The translations under genes were made by a program, and so were the position numbers. DNA of 54,172 bases from an uncultured bacterium. Lineage in GTDB: Bacteria > Fidelibacterota > Marinisomatia > Marinisomatales > UBA1611. Where the stretch lies: the NCBI GenBank assembly GCA_964343085.1, contig CAYFIF010000001.1:1-54172 (forward strand), read 5' to 3'. This document shows positions 3,515 to 54,172 of the stretch, one piece after another. The number at the start of each line of letters is the position of its first letter. Positions within the stretch are counted from its first letter, which is position 1. The notes under the pieces are model-generated. The model did no database searches. It was not told the origin of the DNA and saw only the letters and a program-made list of their open reading frames with translations.

Positions 3515-5377
3515 TTAATCCTTTTTAGTAAGATTAATCTCACTATACTTAGCCGCAGTAAGTTGTGAGTCATCATGACTCAAGGCGACAATACCTACAA
3601 ATAGGTTTTCACCCCAGTCTTTAATATTTAGTTCTCCGTACTTAGTCCAAGCGCTATTCTCAAAAATATAAAAACTTAATAGACTGTTCCTTCTGATTGT
3701 TTTTAGCTTTACCAGGTCCCATTCCAAATCAGGCCCTCTGTTTGCTTCCATTCTCTTTCCATTTTTTTCTCTAAAACCAAATTCAGTATTTCCTCCTGGA
3801 AAAATATTTATGAGCCCATGAGCTGAGTTTGTTTTAAGATTAGATCTGACCATTATGCCTGCTTTTGCATAACTGTGTGTATATAGTAGGTTATTTATTC
3901 TAACAGAAAATTCAAAATCTGTATTAAGTTTTTGATAAACAAACCTAAACTGATCTTTATCAGTCCATATATCATTACCTGCCCCATATAGAATCAAAGT
4001 GTCGGCTGATACAATTTGGCCACCTTTCAAGGGTCTTCCGATATCTTTAACTAGCCACTTATCTGGCAATTCATCTGTACCCGGTGGGGATAGAATTTTG
4101 GGAGGTTTTGGTGGTAGTGAGTCCAATTGACTGGGTTCTTTAATAGTTGTTAACCAAAATCTAAGATCTTCATCTATAGCATATTTTAAATTACCAAAAT
4201 ATTTAAACCAGTCTTTTATATCACTATAGCTAGCTTTCTCTATATCAATTTTTTTTAATTTTTCTTTATTGGTGACCATTCCCCAATTTGATTTTTTGAT
4301 TCCTCCATGGGTTTTAAATACTTTGTAAGACCACATAGTAGCGGGCCAATTATTTTTTTTATAAATATCAAAATACCTGCGCATCATTTCGCCTCCTCCC
4401 GCAGATTGGAAGACGACATTAAATTCCCCAATTAAGAGAGGTGAGTTGAATTGATTCATTTTATTAATCCACAACGGAATTGTATTTTGAATGAAGTCGG
4501 TATGGGTAAAGAGCGTGGGAGGGCCACCACCAAATAGACCGGGGTAAAAGTGCATAGTATAAATTATGTTTTCCACCTTAACTGAACGTATATTTTTATA
4601 GAAGTCTATTCCACTTCTGTGTCCTGGAAAAATAATAATGTGCCTATCATTATTACGCCTTATTTCACTATAAATTTTCAGGATTATTTTTTTTAAGTTT
4701 TTTTCGCTACTTCCCCAAGGTTCGTTTAGCAGATCATAGGCTGCGATTGTTCCTTCATTTTTATATCGTTCCGAAATTTGCTTCCAGAGCCAGATAGTTT
4801 GTTCCTGATATAATTTTTCATCCCAAAGTTTATTAAAATCAACTTCTCCAGAATGGTCCATACCGCTTTGGCGTCCAGGTGCGCCGTGCATATCAAGAAT
4901 AACATACATATTTCGTTTTTTTGCCATTTCTATTGTGTAGTCAATCCATTTCCATGCGTCTTCTTTTAGTCTGAATGGCTTAAGGTCTGATTCCATTAAT
5001 ATTTTATAATCAAATGGAAGTCTTACGGTGTTCATTCCAAATGATTTAATAATGTCCATATCTTTTTCGGTAATCCAATTTTCTCTATATACTTCCATTA
5101 ATTTATAGGCTTTTTCAGCGCCAAATCTATTTTCCAAAGTTTCTATGAATTGTTTTTGATCATGGATCCCTCGTCCTGCATAATCGAGCATCCACATTTC
5201 AAGAATAAGCCAGTTACCCAAGTTGCATCCTTCTAAAAACACAGGCTGATTGGCTTCATCTAGTATTTTTTGATTTTTAACCTTTATCAAGCCTGATGCA
5301 TTTAAAAACACCGTAATAAATACTATTTTAAAAAATAACCGCAATAAATAAAAAAATTCTATTTTTATATTTTTCAT
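3515..5377 (-). CDS. GH5 family beta-glucanase with a C-terminal ConA-like/laminin-G-like module (secreted or periplasmic)
   Basis: 620-aa ORF with a hydrophobic N-terminus. GH5 hallmarks are FLEGCNLGNWLILEMW, VRLPFDY, the acid/base NEP in DLLNEPWG and the nucleophile region LLIGEFN. The C-terminal module shows GAGNDIWTDKDQFRFVYQ..YAKAGIMVRS. Confidence 0.8.
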   Translation of the reverse strand: MKNIKIEFFYLLRLFFKIVFITVFLNASGLIKVKNQKILDEANQPVFLEGCNLGNWLILEMWMLDYAGRGIHDQKQFIETLENRFGAEKAYKLMEVYRENWITEKDMDIIKSFGMNTVRLPFDYKILMESDLKPFRLKEDAWKWIDYTIEMAKKRNMYVILDMHGAPGRQSGMDHSGEVDFNKLWDEKLYQEQTIWLWKQISERYKNEGTIAAYDLLNEPWGSSEKNLKKIILKIYSEIRRNNDRHIIIFPGHRSGIDFYKNIRSVKVENIIYTMHFYPGLFGGGPPTLFTHTDFIQNTIPLWINKMNQFNSPLLIGEFNVVFQSAGGGEMMRRYFDIYKKNNWPATMWSYKVFKTHGGIKKSNWGMVTNKEKLKKIDIEKASYSDIKDWFKYFGNLKYAIDEDLRFWLTTIKEPSQLDSLPPKPPKILSPPGTDELPDKWLVKDIGRPLKGGQIVSADTLILYGAGNDIWTDKDQFRFVYQKLNTDFEFSVRINNLLYTHSYAKAGIMVRSNLKTNSAHGLINIFPGGNTEFGFREKNGKRMEANRGPDLEWDLVKLKTIRRNSLLSFYIFENSAWTKYGELNIKDWGENLFVGIVALSHDDSQLTAAKYSEINLTKKD

Positions 5378-5386
5378 GTTTTAACC

Positions 5387-8300
5387 CTAAAAATTTATAT
5401 TTTTCTTATCCATGAAATATTGAATACTATCTATATTTCCCTTTCTGGTAAATAAATCTTTACAAATTCTAAAATTAATTACTGAATCATGAATTTTTTT
5501 TACTGAGCCATCCAAATATGTTATTATTATTTTTTCCTTAACTGGATGATTAATATCATAAATAATTGGAACCTGATTGAATGTAAATAGGAGCTGGTTT
5601 TTCTTGACCTTTATTTTTGATTCGCCAGTAGCTATGCTATAATGATTGAAAACTTTGGACCTAGTTAAAAATTCTGATTTTCTAAGTAAAAAAGGTGCAA
5701 AAACGAGCTTTCCTTTTTTAATAAAACAACCCAGTTCTCCAAAACGTGTTAAAATCTCTTCCTTTACTTGCCCAGTCATTCCAGGTTGCTGCGCGCCGGA
5801 ATGTGATGGAGAGTGCGAATATGGGTCAAAAGGAAAAGCACCATACTGTTTTGGTGTTTTTGCAGAGCTAAGACCACCTCTTATTTTGTAATAGAGTTTT
5901 CCAAGGGTAGTAAGTTCTGGATTTTTTGGGTTCTTTTTATAAAAATGATAAAAATTTTCCTGAACACTAAGAAGTAATTTGGCAACCATATGCCAGTATA
6001 TGGAGCCAATTCCCTCGTATGAAAACATTGTCCCAGATCGACCTGTATAATATCTGTGTTTAAAAACTGATTCGTAAATTTCAAGTATTTGAAGGTACTC
6101 ACTATCAATTAATTTTTTATATTTAGTCTCATTTTTTTTCAAAATGTTAAGTGCAGTTTTTAAATCAAATTCATTTTTTAAATCTGGATTAAATCGTATG
6201 TTATTTTTTGCATCTAAATTTACAATCCTAGTATCCCCTAAATCGATTAGCATTTTTAATGTTGAGCATTTTTCAAAAAGGGTTTTAGGGATTATGTTTT
6301 TATTAAGGAATGATACTATTTCTTTTGAAGGATAAAGGATAAAACTATTTTGATTTTTTCTATACAGTCTGCTACTGTATATAGCCTTAATTGTAGCAAT
6401 AACTTTGTCCAATGGGAGTCTTCCCGAACTCAAAGCAGCAACCTGGCCTTCCAGCATAATGCTAAGTTTATCAATCTGAGCTGAATTTTTTGATATGTTT
6501 AGGTCAATTATATTATATGCATTGAACAATCCATTTTTTTCATTAGAGTCAATTGTATGATCTAATATTTTTTTGCTAATCTCTAAAAAATCATATAATT
6601 CCTTGGCTTTTATCAAGCTTTTTTTCCTAAAACCCTTTTCATAAACCTTATTCCTATATGATGAGAATGCTTCTCCAGAGCCCATAATAAATTCCATCCT
6701 GATTTTATTATAATCTTTTTGATGGTTTCGTTTTTTATCCAGCTCTATTAGTAGGCTATTAATTTCAAAAAACCATTGAGCAACCTCTCTTGATATTGAC
6801 AAAGATTTTAGATCAGCTTGCTTTAAAATTTTCTGGAAAAAATTAATAAACCTCCTCAAATAATAAACGGTTACCATTGATGCTCCATAACCGACTAAAG
6901 CATTATTAGCATCGTTCCACTCAGGTCTTTGGGTATTTAGCCAGATACCACCGTCAGGGATGAGATTGGATAATTTAGCAAGTGCTAAAACAATTAATTT
7001 TTCACATAGATTTACATGGTATATATTTTTTTTGTTATCCTGAACAAGTTTGATATCAGTACCATAGACATTAACTAAAGCCATGATTTTTTTATTTTTT
7101 TTGAAGTCAAAGTTAATTGTCTCTTTAGGATTAGAAATTATTTCAGAAAACGATCGCAATCTGTAGGGTACATTGGCATAAGAATAAATTTCTAGAGAGA
7201 GGTTGTTAGTCAGTGTTTTATTGCTATAGTTATTTAGATGCTCAAGAAGCTTTTGCAAATAAATTATTTGATGATCATTCCAATAGCCTATATAACTCCA
7301 TGAATCATTAGGGTCGCTTACTTCCCAATCGATTCCATCGCTATCTATGCGATAAGGGTTATATCCGTCTACGGTTGTTGCATTGACAAATTTAGATATC
7401 ATTGAGTTTATTGATAAAGGAAAGCTCAAACCTAGGGCTTCCCAATTTTGGAAAATATCCCTCCAGTTTCCTTCATAATAGAGTAATTCACTGTTATTAT
7501 TATCTTTGGTTTTTATCTCAAATCTATTCCAAGGTCTGCTCGGGTCTCCATGTCGACGACCTAATCTAAGTGGAAGATATTCTCGACACAATCTCATGAT
7601 AGATTGATCTTTTGTTTCATTTGAGAAGTGAATTAATTGGTCCAAACTAACAGTAGCTTTATTTTGATTGAATCTATTTTTGAAGATTTTGTAGGCCTTT
7701 TTATTTCTAGTTTTGAGATTTTCAATAAAATCAGATAATCTAACATTATATTGATTATTAAATACTCCCCCTCTTAGAATATTAAATAGTACATTAGCAG
7801 TGTGATGGAGATCGTTAATATTTGATCGAGTAATTTGAAAACCATCAGCAGAGGCTATGGCATAAACTAACTTATTATGATTACTGATTATGCCTTGTTC
7901 GGTGTCATCAATTATATTTTTGGAGTTATTAAGCGATTTTATTATATGTGTTATCTCAGTTTGAGTTTTGTTTACATCGGCAAATAAATACCATTTCGAT
8001 TCTTCTTTAGGCTTTAACCGCAAACTTGATTTAGTTAGGATGCAGCCAGGTTTACCCGTGACAGTGTATTTTTTTCTAAATCTACCATTTTTTTTGAAAT
8101 TAAAAATTTCTTTATCAGAGACGGATACTTCAAGACTGTTTTCTGAATAGTATGAAACAATATTTGCCCTTAATGATTCTCCAGGCTGAGGTCTATCCAT
8201 TATTAATGAATTTAGGTAAAATAGTGAGCATTTTTTTTTGGGTAAATGCTCTGTTACTTTGTAAGCGTTTGCGAGGTTGTTCATCTCCTGTGTGGTTCGT

Positions 8301-51419: not shown

Positions 51420-51446
51420 TCAAAAAAACGATCAAAACGCTCAAAA
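51420..51446 (+). promoter_or_regulatory. Copy 1 of a shared upstream motif (GATCAAAACGCTCAAAA with TCAAAA direct repeats)
   Basis: GATCAAAACGCTCAAAA at 51430-51446 is identical to 53193-53209. TCAAAA occurs at 51420, 51432 and 51441. The motif ends 57 nt before ATG 51504. Confidence 0.4.
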
Positions 51447-51503
51447 ATGTGTTGCGTCCTATATTCATTGTTAACTAACATTAGTCATAACGAAGGAGCA
51501 AAA

Positions 51504-51776
51504 ATGAATATTTTAGAATCAATAGCACAGGGAACTGACAAAGTTCAAATTGTAGATGATAAGCATAGCAGCTACAACTTTGATGCGAAAAAAGCTGACA
51601 ATGATTTAAAGGCATGTCCTGAATGCAAAATGGTCTGGCAAATTCGCGAGTTTAATGATACAGTAGAATTCAAATATTATGACAGTGTGCCTAGCTATGG
51701 GAAAGTCAAAAAAGTATGTCCGCGCTGTAAAATTAGGATGAAAAATAAATACTATACAAACTCCGAAGTCTGTTAG
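51504..51776 (+). CDS. Small zinc-ribbon protein (two CxxC pairs), unknown function
   Basis: An AAGGAG SD lies 5 nt before ATG 51504 (MNILESIAQG). It has CPECK and CPRCK pairs. The track start at 51447 lacks an SD and directly abuts the upstream motif. Confidence 0.5.
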   Translation: MNILESIAQGTDKVQIVDDKHSSYNFDAKKADNDLKACPECKMVWQIREFNDTVEFKYYDSVPSYGKVKKVCPRCKIRMKNKYYTNSEVC

Positions 51777-51788
51777 AGCTTGTCTAAA

Positions 51789-52085
51789 ATGTATTTAGAT
51801 CATATTGCGGTAGTCTCTAAAGATCTTTCAAGGGATGTTAAATGGTACAAAGATAAATTTGAATGTAATGTTAGGTACCAAGACAGTACCTGGGCCTTAA
51901 TAGCGTTCGATAATGTATCGCTTGCTCTTGTTAATGAAAAAGAGCATCCAACGCATTTCGCTCTTGTGGATCCGGGAGTTAAAGAAAATCAAAAAGTTAA
52001 ACAGCATAGAGACGGCATATTTTATATCTACGAACGAGATCCTAGCGGAAACGTAGTAGAGATTATAGATAGAAATTCAAATTAA
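51789..52085 (+). CDS. VOC (glyoxalase/bleomycin-resistance/dioxygenase) family protein
   Basis: MYLDHIAVVSKDL..WYKDKF..HPTHFALV..DPSGNVVEII shows the typical single-module VOC pattern. The ATG at 51789 is preferred over the TTG at 51780. Confidence 0.75.
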   Translation: MYLDHIAVVSKDLSRDVKWYKDKFECNVRYQDSTWALIAFDNVSLALVNEKEHPTHFALVDPGVKENQKVKQHRDGIFYIYERDPSGNVVEIIDRNSN

Positions 52086-52111
52086 TTAACCCCAAAAAGT
52101 TAGGAGCTTAA

Positions 52112-52432
52112 ATGAAAAAACCAGCAACCAGAAAAAATAGAATGAAAAGTTCACCATGGATAGAAACTAAGTGGACAAAAAGTTCAAAATCACTAGGTGA
52201 GTACATTTTTAGACGACTCTCTATTGATCAGTCAAATAAAGATTATAATCGTATCAGACCCCGGCACATAATGAGCAAACTAATAGTGCAGTCAAAAGAA
52301 ATAGACAAGTATATCGCAGATTACTTATCCCTCCAAGATTCAAGAAGGTCAAATGTCGTTAATTCAGCAAAGCTGGAATCAGATTTGAAGAATAGTTTTA
52401 TAAATACCGACAATTTCCCAACGTCTTATTAG
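52112..52432 (+). CDS. Hypothetical basic protein
   Basis: 106 aa and Lys/Arg-rich. A good SD (AGGAG) precedes ATG 52112. No motif was recognised. Confidence 0.4.
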   Translation: MKKPATRKNRMKSSPWIETKWTKSSKSLGEYIFRRLSIDQSNKDYNRIRPRHIMSKLIVQSKEIDKYIADYLSLQDSRRSNVVNSAKLESDLKNSFINTDNFPTSY

Positions 52433-52436
52433 TGAA

Positions 52437-53027
52437 ATGTTAAAAGGCTTAGATTGGAGAAAAATTATGCTTGCAGGAATAGTAACAGCAGTCTCTGGAG
52501 CAGCAGTCATGTTGTTCGGAAAGAGTACTAAAATGCCTACGAAGAAAGTTGTCCCAAGAAATTCTTTTTATAAAATAAATGTTAGAGATATTAATGGTGA
52601 TATTTTTAATCTTAAAAAATACGCCGGCAAAAAGATATTGATCGTTAATGTTGCTAGTAAATGTGGATACACTGGTCAGTACAGTGATCTTCAAAAGTTG
52701 TATAGTCAGTACAATGATAAATTGGAAGTGATTGCTGTTCCTTGTAATGATTTTGGAAGGCAAGAACCAGGAGCTCCATCTGAAATCTCTGACTTCTGTG
52801 AAGTTAACTATGGAGTCACATTTCCCATTCTAGAAAAATCTAATATTAAATCAGATCCTAAAAGTGAGCTTTACGATTGGTTAACTGATGATGAAAAAAA
52901 TGGGTGGAACAATAGTGCACCCTCTTGGAATTTTTGTAAGTATCTCATCGATGAGCACGGAAATTTAATAAGGTTTTTTCGAAGTGGCGTGGGCCCTATG
53001 AGCAAGGATATTCTATCACTTCTGTAA
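52437..53027 (+). CDS. gpx: Glutathione peroxidase family protein (Cys-type) with an N-terminal membrane anchor
   Basis: Motifs are NVASKCGYT (the catalytic Cys is a TGT codon at 52662-52664), VPCNDFGRQEPG and WNFCKYLID. The N-terminal hydrophobic segment is MLAGIVTAVSGAAVMLFG. Confidence 0.9.
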   Translation: MLKGLDWRKIMLAGIVTAVSGAAVMLFGKSTKMPTKKVVPRNSFYKINVRDINGDIFNLKKYAGKKILIVNVASKCGYTGQYSDLQKLYSQYNDKLEVIAVPCNDFGRQEPGAPSEISDFCEVNYGVTFPILEKSNIKSDPKSELYDWLTDDEKNGWNNSAPSWNFCKYLIDEHGNLIRFFRSGVGPMSKDILSLL

Positions 53028-53063
53028 TTGTTTTAAGTAGTTGTTTAAGTATCGTGTTTGGAG

Positions 53064-53108
53064 AGGGAGGAGGATTATGGCGTTTTCCTTTTTGATTTCC
53101 TCCTCCCT
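53064..53108 (+). terminator. Probable rho-independent terminator (11-bp perfect stem, 23-nt loop)
   Basis: AGGGAGGAGGA (53064-53074) pairs with TCCTCCTCCCT (53098-53108). An A/T-rich tail with T-runs follows. The hairpin starts 37 nt after the gpx stop. Confidence 0.55.
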
Positions 53109-53192
53109 AGTATTTTAAAAATATTTTTTTAAGACAGGAATTAATTTAAAATTAGAGTCAAATCAAAAATTTTATGTTTTATTTGAAAAAAA

Positions 53193-53209
53193 GATCAAAA
53201 CGCTCAAAA
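53193..53209 (+). promoter_or_regulatory. Copy 2 of the shared upstream motif GATCAAAACGCTCAAAA
   Basis: This 17-mer is identical to 51430-51446, and the flanks also match (aaaaaaa.GATCAAAACGCTCAAAA.t). It ends 40 nt before ATG 53250 of the LitR/CarH-like regulator. Confidence 0.4.
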
Positions 53210-53249
53210 TTAGATACTGTTCTTTACAAATTCTGGAGTACATTCTAGT

Positions 53250-54131
53250 ATGAGATATCTTAACTCTAACGATGTTGCCGATATTTTGGGCATCAATATA
53301 TCAACCCTGAAGCGGTGGACGGAAAATGGAACTATCTCTTGTAAAAAAACCTCTGGTGGTCACAGGAAATTTACGATGTCGGATATTAGAGAATATTACA
53401 AGAATAACAAAAAGTCTGGAAAAAGTTTTGGTTTTGGTATTGAAAACTTGACTCATAAAAATGTATATAACTACCTCAGTTGCAGAGATTATCCAAAGTT
53501 AATCAGTTTTTTGGTAGATGCCAGTATAGAAGCTGATGAAACGGGTGTAAGTACTCTGATAAACGGTGCATATATGAAAAATATGCCAGTAGATGTAATA
53601 TTTGATGAAATTGTAGAACCTGCAAGCGATATAGTGGAAGAGGCCTTACAAAAAAAAAGCATAACACATCTTGATGCATACATTAGCCGTAAGCTAATAA
53701 CCAGAATCGTAGAAGGGATTAACCAGAATAGGCCTAATAATAAATCTAATAGAAAAGTGGCATTGTGTATTAACTTTGAAGACAATCTTCCGGATCTAGG
53801 AGTTGTTATGTCTGAAGTAGTATTACGCCATTTTGGTTACAATACATACAATGCAGGCTCTCACGCAGAAATCGGTGATTTGCATAGTGTCTTAGAAAAA
53901 AAATCTGTTGATGTGATTTTATTTTTCCTTTGTGATAGGCAGTGTTGCATGGCCTCAGCCGGTGATAATTTGACCAAAACCAGCAAGCAAATAGCATCCA
54001 TAATCGAGTCCGTTATTGATTATAATGTGAAAACTATTTTTGGCGGCAGAGGATTAAATCTTTTTCCCCAATTAAATGGTAAAATCGATAGTACTTTTTT
54101 TACCTTTTCTCAATTAAAAAAAATCCTTTAA
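53250..54131 (+). CDS. MerR-type HTH regulator fused to a B12-binding-like domain (LitR/CarH-like), lacking the canonical cobalamin ligand motifs
   Basis: The N-terminal MerR/excisionase-type HTH is LNSNDVADILGINISTLKRWTENG..GGHRKF. The C-terminal Rossmann-like B12-binding fold reads KVALCINFEDNLPDLGVVMSEVVLRHFGYNTYNAG..VDVILFF. Where DxHxxG is expected the sequence is EDNLPDLG, with no His. Confidence 0.65.
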   Translation: MRYLNSNDVADILGINISTLKRWTENGTISCKKTSGGHRKFTMSDIREYYKNNKKSGKSFGFGIENLTHKNVYNYLSCRDYPKLISFLVDASIEADETGVSTLINGAYMKNMPVDVIFDEIVEPASDIVEEALQKKSITHLDAYISRKLITRIVEGINQNRPNNKSNRKVALCINFEDNLPDLGVVMSEVVLRHFGYNTYNAGSHAEIGDLHSVLEKKSVDVILFFLCDRQCCMASAGDNLTKTSKQIASIIESVIDYNVKTIFGGRGLNLFPQLNGKIDSTFFTFSQLKKIL

Positions 54132-54172
54132 CAAATTCCTGACCTATTAAAATAAGTTACCGCCGTGGAATA

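Follow-up and report, generated by a model that had tools for sequence, protein, structure and literature searches.

The window analysed here is the whole 54,172-nt stretch of contig CAYFIF010000001.1 from an uncultured bacterium of the Fidelibacterota (assembly GCA_964343085.1), and the present text deals with a repeated DNA element near its right-hand end and with the regulator gene that follows the second copy of this element. An operon on the plus strand begins with a gene for a zinc-ribbon protein of 90 aa with two CxxC pairs (51504-51776; an open reading frame without a Pfam family at cut-off) and continues with genes for a VOC/glyoxalase-fold protein (51789-52085; Pfam Glyoxalase, E 8.2e-5), a basic protein of 106 aa (52112-52432; no Pfam family) and a glutathione peroxidase (GPx; 52467-53027; Pfam GSHPx, E 9.4e-35). 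It is followed on the same strand by the gene for a 293-aa regulator (53250-54131), in which a BldC/excisionase-type winged helix-turn-helix (HTH) is joined to a CarH/CtMerR-like four-helix bundle and a Rossmann domain. The identical 17-mer GATCAAAACGCTCAAAA is found on the plus strand upstream of both units, at 51430-51446 and 53193-53209, as had been noticed in a first-pass annotation of the sequence. Direct reading of the window and a search of the assembly confirmed the identity of both copies, the distances of 57 and 40 nt to the ATGs at 51504 and 53250 are correct, and the flanks agree roughly as claimed, with 6 of 8 bases upstream and 1 of 3 downstream being identical. In the following, this element is discussed as a candidate operator of the neighbouring regulator.

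The unit from which the element is built had to be corrected. The annotation regarded it as composed of TCAAAA repeats, and all words listed there are indeed present (TCAAAA at 51420, 51432, 51441, 53195 and 53204, TGAAAA at 53184, and TCAAA units at 53158-53168), but the conserved unit is a different one, namely the 9-bp sequence WWCGYTCAW, which occurs as the tandem direct repeat WWCGYTCAW-WWCGCTCAW. Among about 60 places with the 13-mer core that were read in genomes of the family, (A/T)(A/T)CG precedes every true site (for example AACGCTCATAACGCTCAT), hence the element represents a tandem pair of 9-bp units. In this frame, copy 1 is predicted at 51427-51444 of the plus strand (AACGATCAA AACGCTCAA) and copy 2 at 53190-53207 (AAAGATCAA AACGCTCAA), the latter with a degenerate first unit, which is typical of the regulator's own promoter among relatives. 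TCAAAA was rejected as repeat unit, given that the extra units are not kept in the same-genus genome G010 and that the spaced pair TCAAAA-n3-TCAAAA is common. The single word has 5859 copies in the window's own genome. The spaced pair, which had been suggested for a genome scan, matches the whole assembly 18 times versus 2 times in the reversed control, and only two of these 18 are the window sites, so that the pattern alone is not specific; its excess may be an effect of codon or strand composition. An RNA element was also considered and dropped, because a search of Rfam gave no match at E values up to 1.

The 17-mer itself is highly restricted in its occurrence. In the assembly to which the window belongs (G000; 2.27 Mb in 348 contigs, 33% G+C, 71% complete) the scan for exact copies returned only the two in the window, and within the window the same two were the only matches when up to three mismatches were allowed, while shuffled sequences gave 0.32 matches on average and reached at least two in 5 of 100 shuffles. 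A position weight matrix (PWM) built from the sites of relatives ranked copy 1 (28.3) and copy 2 (25.4) highest in the genome, before two sites on contig C158 (24.9 and 23.2) and a fifth site with 19.0, and no score above 14 was obtained with the reversed genome; in such a matrix the scores are necessarily circular for positions that belong to the search pattern, but not for the flanks and promoter boxes. Across the phylum, the strict 16-mer pattern CGYTCAWAWCGCTCAW gave 58 matches in 32 of the 301 sampled genomes and none with the reversed pattern, and the 13-mer core gave 123 matches in 54 genomes of the family compared to about 8 for its reversed control. The element is hence no generic repeat scattered over unrelated positions, its sites being found at the promoters of one gene set.

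The repeat is also conserved at both of its places in the window. Orthologues of the 293-aa regulator were detected in 22 of 53 other genomes of the family, and in all 20 family loci examined the repeat is kept upstream of the start codon of the regulator gene. At the place of copy 2, G[ACT]TCAWAWCGCTCAW is found in all but one of these 20 loci (in L017 the first unit reads GCCCAT). Among 35 close homologues analysed separately, the repeat begins 55-58 nt upstream of the start codon in 30. It is likewise kept before the zinc-ribbon operon in G010 and other relatives, the promoter of G010 consisting of ATCGCTCAA-AACGTTCAA, 7 nt, TTGCCT, 18 nt and TAAAAT. The comparison of orthologous upstream regions, which the annotation had named as a check, thus revealed the repeat at the same place before both genes.

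More distant relatives also connect the repeat with the regulator. The repeat occurs upstream of the regulator gene in nearly all loci, including those of homologues with only 22-30% identity in G060, G072, Calditrichia, KSB1, Cytophagia/Bacteroidota, Ignavibacteriales and Fidelibacterota, where two inverted copies often bracket divergent promoters. A sequence-level test found the period of 9 in every class of sites, and 9 is the only period of the best upstream tandem repeat at 28 of the 45 distant loci. Moreover, the sequence of the units changes together with the recognition helix. Regulators with STLKRWT...GGHRKFT are accompanied by CGCTCA units, those with ST(I/V)RRWA by CGTGCA/GCACGA units of the same 9-bp period (L098, L099, L100, L101 and L104, from other families of the phylum), and the variant helix of L028 by AACGCCTAT AACGCCTAA, with variant units AACGCCTA again at the 9-bp period. 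The difference between the RRWA and KRWT helices points to a candidate specificity-determining residue. In agreement with such a link, the strict motif is present in 21 of 47 genomes with a regulator homologue versus 11 of 254 without, numbers that come from mutually related genomes and not from independent samples.

The position of the repeat relative to promoter elements follows two arrangements. In the forward arrangement (31 sites and 19 regulator promoters) the repeat is followed by 7 nt, a -35 box, 16-18 nt and a -10 box; in this register the promoters match TTGACA/TATAAT at 8.0 of 12 positions on average, versus 5.9 at shifted control offsets. The zinc-ribbon promoters of relatives come near to the consensus (TTGACA-16-TATAAT, 10-12 of 12) and should therefore not need an activator. 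The 19 sites of the inverted arrangement immediately follow the -10 box of a TTGACA-17/18 promoter (about -6 to +12) and are found 25-30 nt ahead of the start codons of DUF4397 and DUF6370 genes, a position that is typical for classical repressors. Both window operators belong to the forward type and would be placed at about -60 to -43. Using the geometry common to the forward sites of relatives, the -35 box behind copy 1 can tentatively be assigned to TTGCGT (51452-51457), 7 nt after the repeat, and the -10 box to TAACAT (51476-51481) with an 18-nt spacer. Behind copy 2 the corresponding -35 position holds the poor TACTGT (53215-53220), again after 7 nt, and the inferred -10 box TACATT (53239-53244) is found 5 nt before the ATG of the regulator gene. 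A scan of the window for consensus promoters was uninformative in this regard (9 sites versus 12.5 expected).

The close vicinity of -10 box and start codon is a common feature of the regulator genes. In their orthologues the repeat is followed after 7 nt by a TTTAAT-like -35 box, and the start codon is preceded by TATATT at a distance of 5 nt; most of the loci L009-L026 and L113-L146 combine this TATATT with the lack of a Shine-Dalgarno sequence. With the -10 box only 5 nt before the ATG, the regulator mRNA is probably leaderless, as far as can be judged from the upstream sequences. The statement that both ATGs are preceded by a Shine-Dalgarno sequence therefore holds for 51504, with a clear AAGGAG, but probably not for 53250. 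The same leaderless-like pattern was seen for a short-chain dehydrogenase/reductase (SDR) gene behind a site in G037. Two other explanations of the promoter geometry were dismissed. A promoter element for an extracytoplasmic function (ECF) or other sigma factor does not fit, because the repeat is found in either orientation and at ordinary promoters, where it precedes the -35 box or follows the -10 box. A common scheme for both geometries, in which the oligomer would spread across the core promoter from the 3' end of the repeat, was considered and given up, since the start-overlapping repeat of Calditrichia is oppositely oriented.

Regarding the regulator protein, Pfam searches assigned HTH_17 (E 5.6e-10) and MerR_1 (E 5.1e-7) together with a weak B12-binding match. 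The best solved relative is CtMerR (8JBS in the Protein Data Bank, PDB; phmmer E 2.5e-14), which aligns over HTH and sensor (residues 6-211 of the query versus 20-234 of the chain). The HTH also aligns with RacA and BldC, and when BldC is taken alone (6AMK/6AMA) the KRW and GGH residues align at phmmer E values of 0.011-0.015. An AlphaFold2 model of the regulator (pLDDT 85, pTM 0.74) matched the sensor domain of 8JBS in Foldseek with TMt 0.82 and a root-mean-square deviation of 3.2 Å and the Thermus CarH structures 5C8D/5C8E with a Foldseek probability of 1.00; AppA SCHIC and AerR were also among the matches.

Despite this fold, the residues for cobalamin binding are absent. At the place of the Wx9EH motif the regulator reads EEAL...LDAY, i.e. 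Ala for Trp and Asp-Ala for Glu-His, and W-x(8-11)-[EDQ]H occurs in none of the 35 close homologues versus all 45 distant ones. The lower axial His of (D/E)xHxxG is replaced by Pro in 35 of 35 close homologues (NFEDNLPDLG) and is a His in 44 of the 45 B12-type homologues. Of the light-responsive signature GxxW, EH, GxxH, GxxxP, the W, EH and H are thus all replaced in the window regulator. It follows from these residues that the protein cannot be a canonical B12 photoreceptor and that its signal cannot be the canonical photolysis of adenosylcobalamin (AdoCbl). His140, His194, His205 and a C-x3-CC motif (Cys228, Cys232 and Cys233) are invariant in all 35 B12-free homologues and lacking in the B12-type ones (n=45). 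This Cys/His set may provide the former cobalamin domain with a new site for a cofactor or for redox reactions. The invariant residues, the SCHIC-like fold match and the adjacent photolyase may each hint at an alternative signal. The same repeat accompanies the B12-type homologues of Calditrichia, KSB1 and Bacteroidota, and the comparison of both groups shows that the SAR406 branch of the regulator kept the predicted operator while losing every B12 ligand residue.

The genes behind the repeat in relatives give hints to the function of the system. The commonest gene directly behind it encodes orthologues of the zinc-ribbon protein (cluster k5), which is always followed by the VOC gene (k0). The full order in relatives is zinc-ribbon, VOC, SDR, basic protein and GPx, with the genes for the basic protein (k7) and GPx (k9) kept at their operon positions; the window version lacks the SDR gene. 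Between the GPx and regulator genes of the window, a terminator-like hairpin (53064-53108, plus strand) with an 11-bp stem GGGAGGAGGAU / AUUUCCUCCUCCC, a 23-nt loop and a T-rich tail is found, for which a centroid fold of -21.1 kcal/mol and a z-score of -2.27 were calculated. A similar pair, GGGAGGAGG...CCTCCCTCC, stands at its place in G010, and the hairpin probably represents the operon terminator. A simple terminator scan of the window, which was limited to loops of at most 8 nt, called none, and the larger loop explains why this hairpin was passed over.

In addition, the repeat precedes genes for DUF2878, a second domain, lipocalin and amine oxidase, genes for DUF2237 and an FAD_binding_7 cryptochrome-like protein, a Rieske protein gene, a gene for an unassigned protein of 150-163 aa without Pfam match that adjoins SOUL and DoxX_2 genes, and the regulator gene itself together with a class II-type DNA photolyase gene. 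The photolyase directly follows the regulator in 18 of 20 loci, and the regulator gene often has a DPRP photolyase-related gene ahead of it. In terms of Pfam, the gene set comprises DNA_photolyase, DPRP, FAD_binding_7, DUF2878, lipocalin, amine oxidase, SDR, SOUL, DoxX_2, DUF2237 and GPx. The window contig ends 41 nt past the stop codon of the regulator (54131-54172). Contig C103 of the same assembly begins with a photolyase gene (5153-6460, minus strand) without its first 9 residues, the product of which is 73% identical to the post-regulator photolyase of G010; hence, the window contig and C103 are probably adjacent. A proteorhodopsin gene was observed next to sites in three genomes (L054 in G012:C43:1000-10000, L048 and L072), and in G012 this gene and an operon for DUF2237 and cryptochrome-like proteins are divergently oriented, a site being placed between them.

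The window's genome contains further sites. Contig C158 (4760 nt) harbours two operator sites on the minus strand (2928-2947 and 3626-3645) and genes for SOUL, an unassigned 148-aa protein, zinc-ribbon, VOC, regulator, photolyase and a TPMT-like methyltransferase. Its DNA is 88% identical to that of G040, a member of another genus, whereas the window is 68% identical to its relative of the same genus, and C158 may be mis-binned. It was therefore not accepted as a paralogous locus of the same genome and served only as a related locus. The fifth-ranking site is a weaker repeat, AACGCTCAA-TTCGCCCAA, on the minus strand of contig C65 (8834-8853; PWM score 19.0), which is placed before an apparently leaderless gene of the MarR family with 5 nt, not 7, from the repeat to a TTGCAA box. 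In G047, a core match adjoins a MarR gene just after the regulator-photolyase locus.

Collectively, these comparative data make it probable that both copies in the window are autoregulated repressor operators of a photoprotection regulon, to which the regulator encoded at 53250-54131 would bind. Each operator would be a head-to-tail pair of the 9-bp units, each unit being read by one BldC-like winged-helix domain, while the regulator would oligomerise through its CarH-like C-terminal domain. One of the operators could serve the zinc-ribbon/VOC/basic protein/GPx operon and the other one the regulator gene, the transcript of which may run on into the photolyase gene of contig C103. In the dark or in the unstressed state the bound oligomer would repress both promoters, and a light or photo-oxidative signal would release it and thereby switch on photolyases, the cryptochrome-like protein, the peroxidase as well as genes for lipid and reactive oxygen species (ROS) protection. 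We infer from these comparisons that the regulator binds, that it represses instead of activating, and which kind of signal it receives. Repression appears to be the likeliest mechanism because some sites overlap the transcription start, because promoters behind upstream sites come close to the consensus, and because every characterised family member behaves in this way. The small regulon originally proposed, comprising regulator and zinc-ribbon operon, hence received comparative support at both places, although in relatives it is larger than these two units. The proposed light- or oxidative-stress response is in line with the photolyase, cryptochrome-like and lipid/ROS-protection genes behind the repeat, but a canonical B12 photoreceptor as its sensor is excluded.

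Several observations weigh against this explanation. Activators use a position at -60 to -43 more commonly than repressors do, the -35 box of the regulator gene itself is poor, and the window operators are 1.76 kb apart, which makes looping between them unlikely. The HTH match to BldC alone is weak, and the co-variation between helix and repeat comes from few independent lineages. Furthermore, 11 of the 32 motif-bearing genomes yielded no regulator homologue. Profile and HTH-only searches found neither regulator nor its HTH in G012, G278, G042 and G054, which also lack the partner photolyase; in the five motif-only genomes searched in this way the matches were restricted to one weak HTH and to the B12 domain of a protein of about 1190 aa, which we take to be MetH. 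In the fifth of them, G004, the photolyase is cut at the start of a contig. Since this photolyase is truncated and the regulator is often found at contig ends or on small contigs, as in the window's own genome where the contig breaks right after it, an unassembled locus would fit the regulator-less genomes.

Among the alternatives, the one that survives best, even though we consider it rather unlikely, assumes the same protein and the same site in a dual role. The regulator would activate through contact with RNA polymerase at -60 to -43, i.e. from both window copies, and its repression would be limited to sites that cover the start of transcription. In favour of this, activators that depend on position typically keep such a strict spacing as the 7 nt to the -35 box, and weak -35 boxes (TTTAAT or TTTTTA) are found in the promoters of the regulator and DUF2878 genes. 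BldC is able to both activate and repress. However, the zinc-ribbon promoters with the same arrangement are close to consensus, and in Calditrichia a pair of sites combines the same upstream repeat with a second repeat at the repressor position of a divergent promoter. Moreover, all characterised LitR/CarH members including the B12-free class II are repressors (PMC9758184, PMC8156234).

A less probable explanation would be that the repeat is the site of a different transcription factor, for which the neighbouring regulator gene is merely one target. The 11 motif-bearing genomes without detected regulator or HTH homologue would be expected in this case, but in the motif-only genomes the partner photolyase is likewise absent or truncated at the edge of a contig, which rather indicates an assembly gap. 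In addition, a different factor would hardly account for the co-variation of the repeat with the recognition helix of the regulator, for its retention upstream of homologues across several phyla and for the head-to-tail layout of 9 bp that matches a BldC-type HTH (PMC5859096). Finally, a chance duplicate of A-rich DNA, a generic intergenic repeat or an alternative-sigma promoter element, for which one could quote the AT-rich window and the abundance of TCAAAA and its spaced pair, is very improbable and already contradicted by the comparative data, namely the 58 matches against none for the reversed pattern, the confinement of sites to promoters of one functional gene set, the two orientations and two positions relative to ordinary -35/-10 boxes and the missing Rfam match.

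If the two copies are repressor operators of the photoprotection regulon, the question arises of what replaces B12 as sensor in a branch that kept the operator and lost the B12 ligands. It is conceivable, albeit doubtful at present, that the regulator is the founder of a new LitR/CarH class, in which the cobalamin pocket was rebuilt around Cys228, Cys232, Cys233, His140, His194 and His205 so that haem (as known from SCHIC domains), an Fe-S cluster or a metal could replace B12 as cofactor or a redox-active thiol switch could operate, and that SAR406 senses light or photo-oxidative stress in this way via a BldC-type operator of two 9-bp units. SAR406 would then perceive these conditions by a mechanism that has not yet been described. 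The Marinimicrobia (SAR406) are abundant, uncultured and among the most abundant bacterial lineages of the ocean, and we know of no experimental work on their gene regulation. For this group, the present analysis provides a concrete predicted operator amenable to synthesis, a defined set of candidate target genes and a regulator suited to expression in E. coli.

The proposed system can be compared with several characterised regulators. CarH is a dark repressor that occupies tandem direct repeats in tetrameric form (PMC8156234). The window regulator resembles CarH and the class I LitR proteins of Thermus thermophilus, Bacillus megaterium and Myxococcus xanthus in the combination of winged HTH, four-helix bundle and Rossmann fold, in the predicted use of tandem direct repeats rather than a palindrome, and in putative operators at its own and at photoprotection gene promoters. 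However, the CarH repeats have 11 bp (nAnnTnnACAn), occur three to four times in tandem and overlap the -35 or -10 box, whereas two 9-bp units of different sequence are found here, and CarH requires AdoCbl, for which the window regulator lacks the ligand residues. A period of 9 bp is known from BldC of Streptomyces (PDB 6AMA/6AMK), which binds 9-bp direct repeats head to tail; each repeat contains an AT-rich tetrad that is followed after 4 bp by a C-G pair (AATTxxxxC; PMC5859096). The window unit can be framed accordingly as AWAA-CGCT-C, and the Arg of KRW as well as the wing His of GGH align between both proteins. In contrast, BldC is a stand-alone domain of 68 residues that oligomerises through its HTH, while the HTH is fused to a CarH-like oligomerisation/sensor domain here, and the sequence match is weak (E about 0.01).

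With regard to the regulated genes, class II LitR is very similar. PplR1 of Pseudomonas putida and PmlR2 of P. mendocina are B12-independent repressors of a light regulon (PMC9758184), which shares photolyase, cryptochrome-like protein, SDR and FAD oxidoreductase genes with the gene set described here. These proteins consist of the helical bundle only, use a TGTACA-N12-TGTACA operator and receive light through a LOV partner protein, whereas the window regulator keeps both subdomains and has another predicted operator; no LOV gene was noticed among the neighbouring gene clusters, in which no systematic LOV search was made. A B12-binding-like fold that binds haem instead of cobalamin is represented by the SCHIC domain of AppA. 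CarA of Myxococcus xanthus, a B12-independent paralogue of CarH without Wx9EH, is released by an antirepressor (PMC8156234). Both examples demonstrate that the CarH-type fold can be re-used without B12, but they have no sequence relation to the window regulator beyond the fold, for which neither an antirepressor nor a haem site was identified.

The best match in sequence and fold remains CtMerR of Chloracidobacterium thermophilum, a CarH-like AdoCbl photoreceptor with a divergent HTH that forms a tetramer in the dark (PDB 8JBS/8JBT; PMC11796333). Both proteins share the same excisionase/BldC-type HTH (...S.KRW...GGHR.F), and the GxxW, EH and His signatures of CtMerR are kept by the B12-type homologues within the phylum. 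The window regulator differs by Ala for Trp, Asp-Ala for Glu-His and Pro for the cobalt-ligating His, and it possesses Cys228, Cys232, Cys233, His140, His194 and His205, which the B12-type homologues lack. The description of CtMerR uses neither the term operator nor promoter (PMC11796333). Hence, the predicted site of two 9-bp units would be the first operator proposed for this subgroup. With it, a DNA target is suggested for the first time for B12 photoreceptors of the CtMerR type, a branch that occurs in several Bacteroidota-related phyla.

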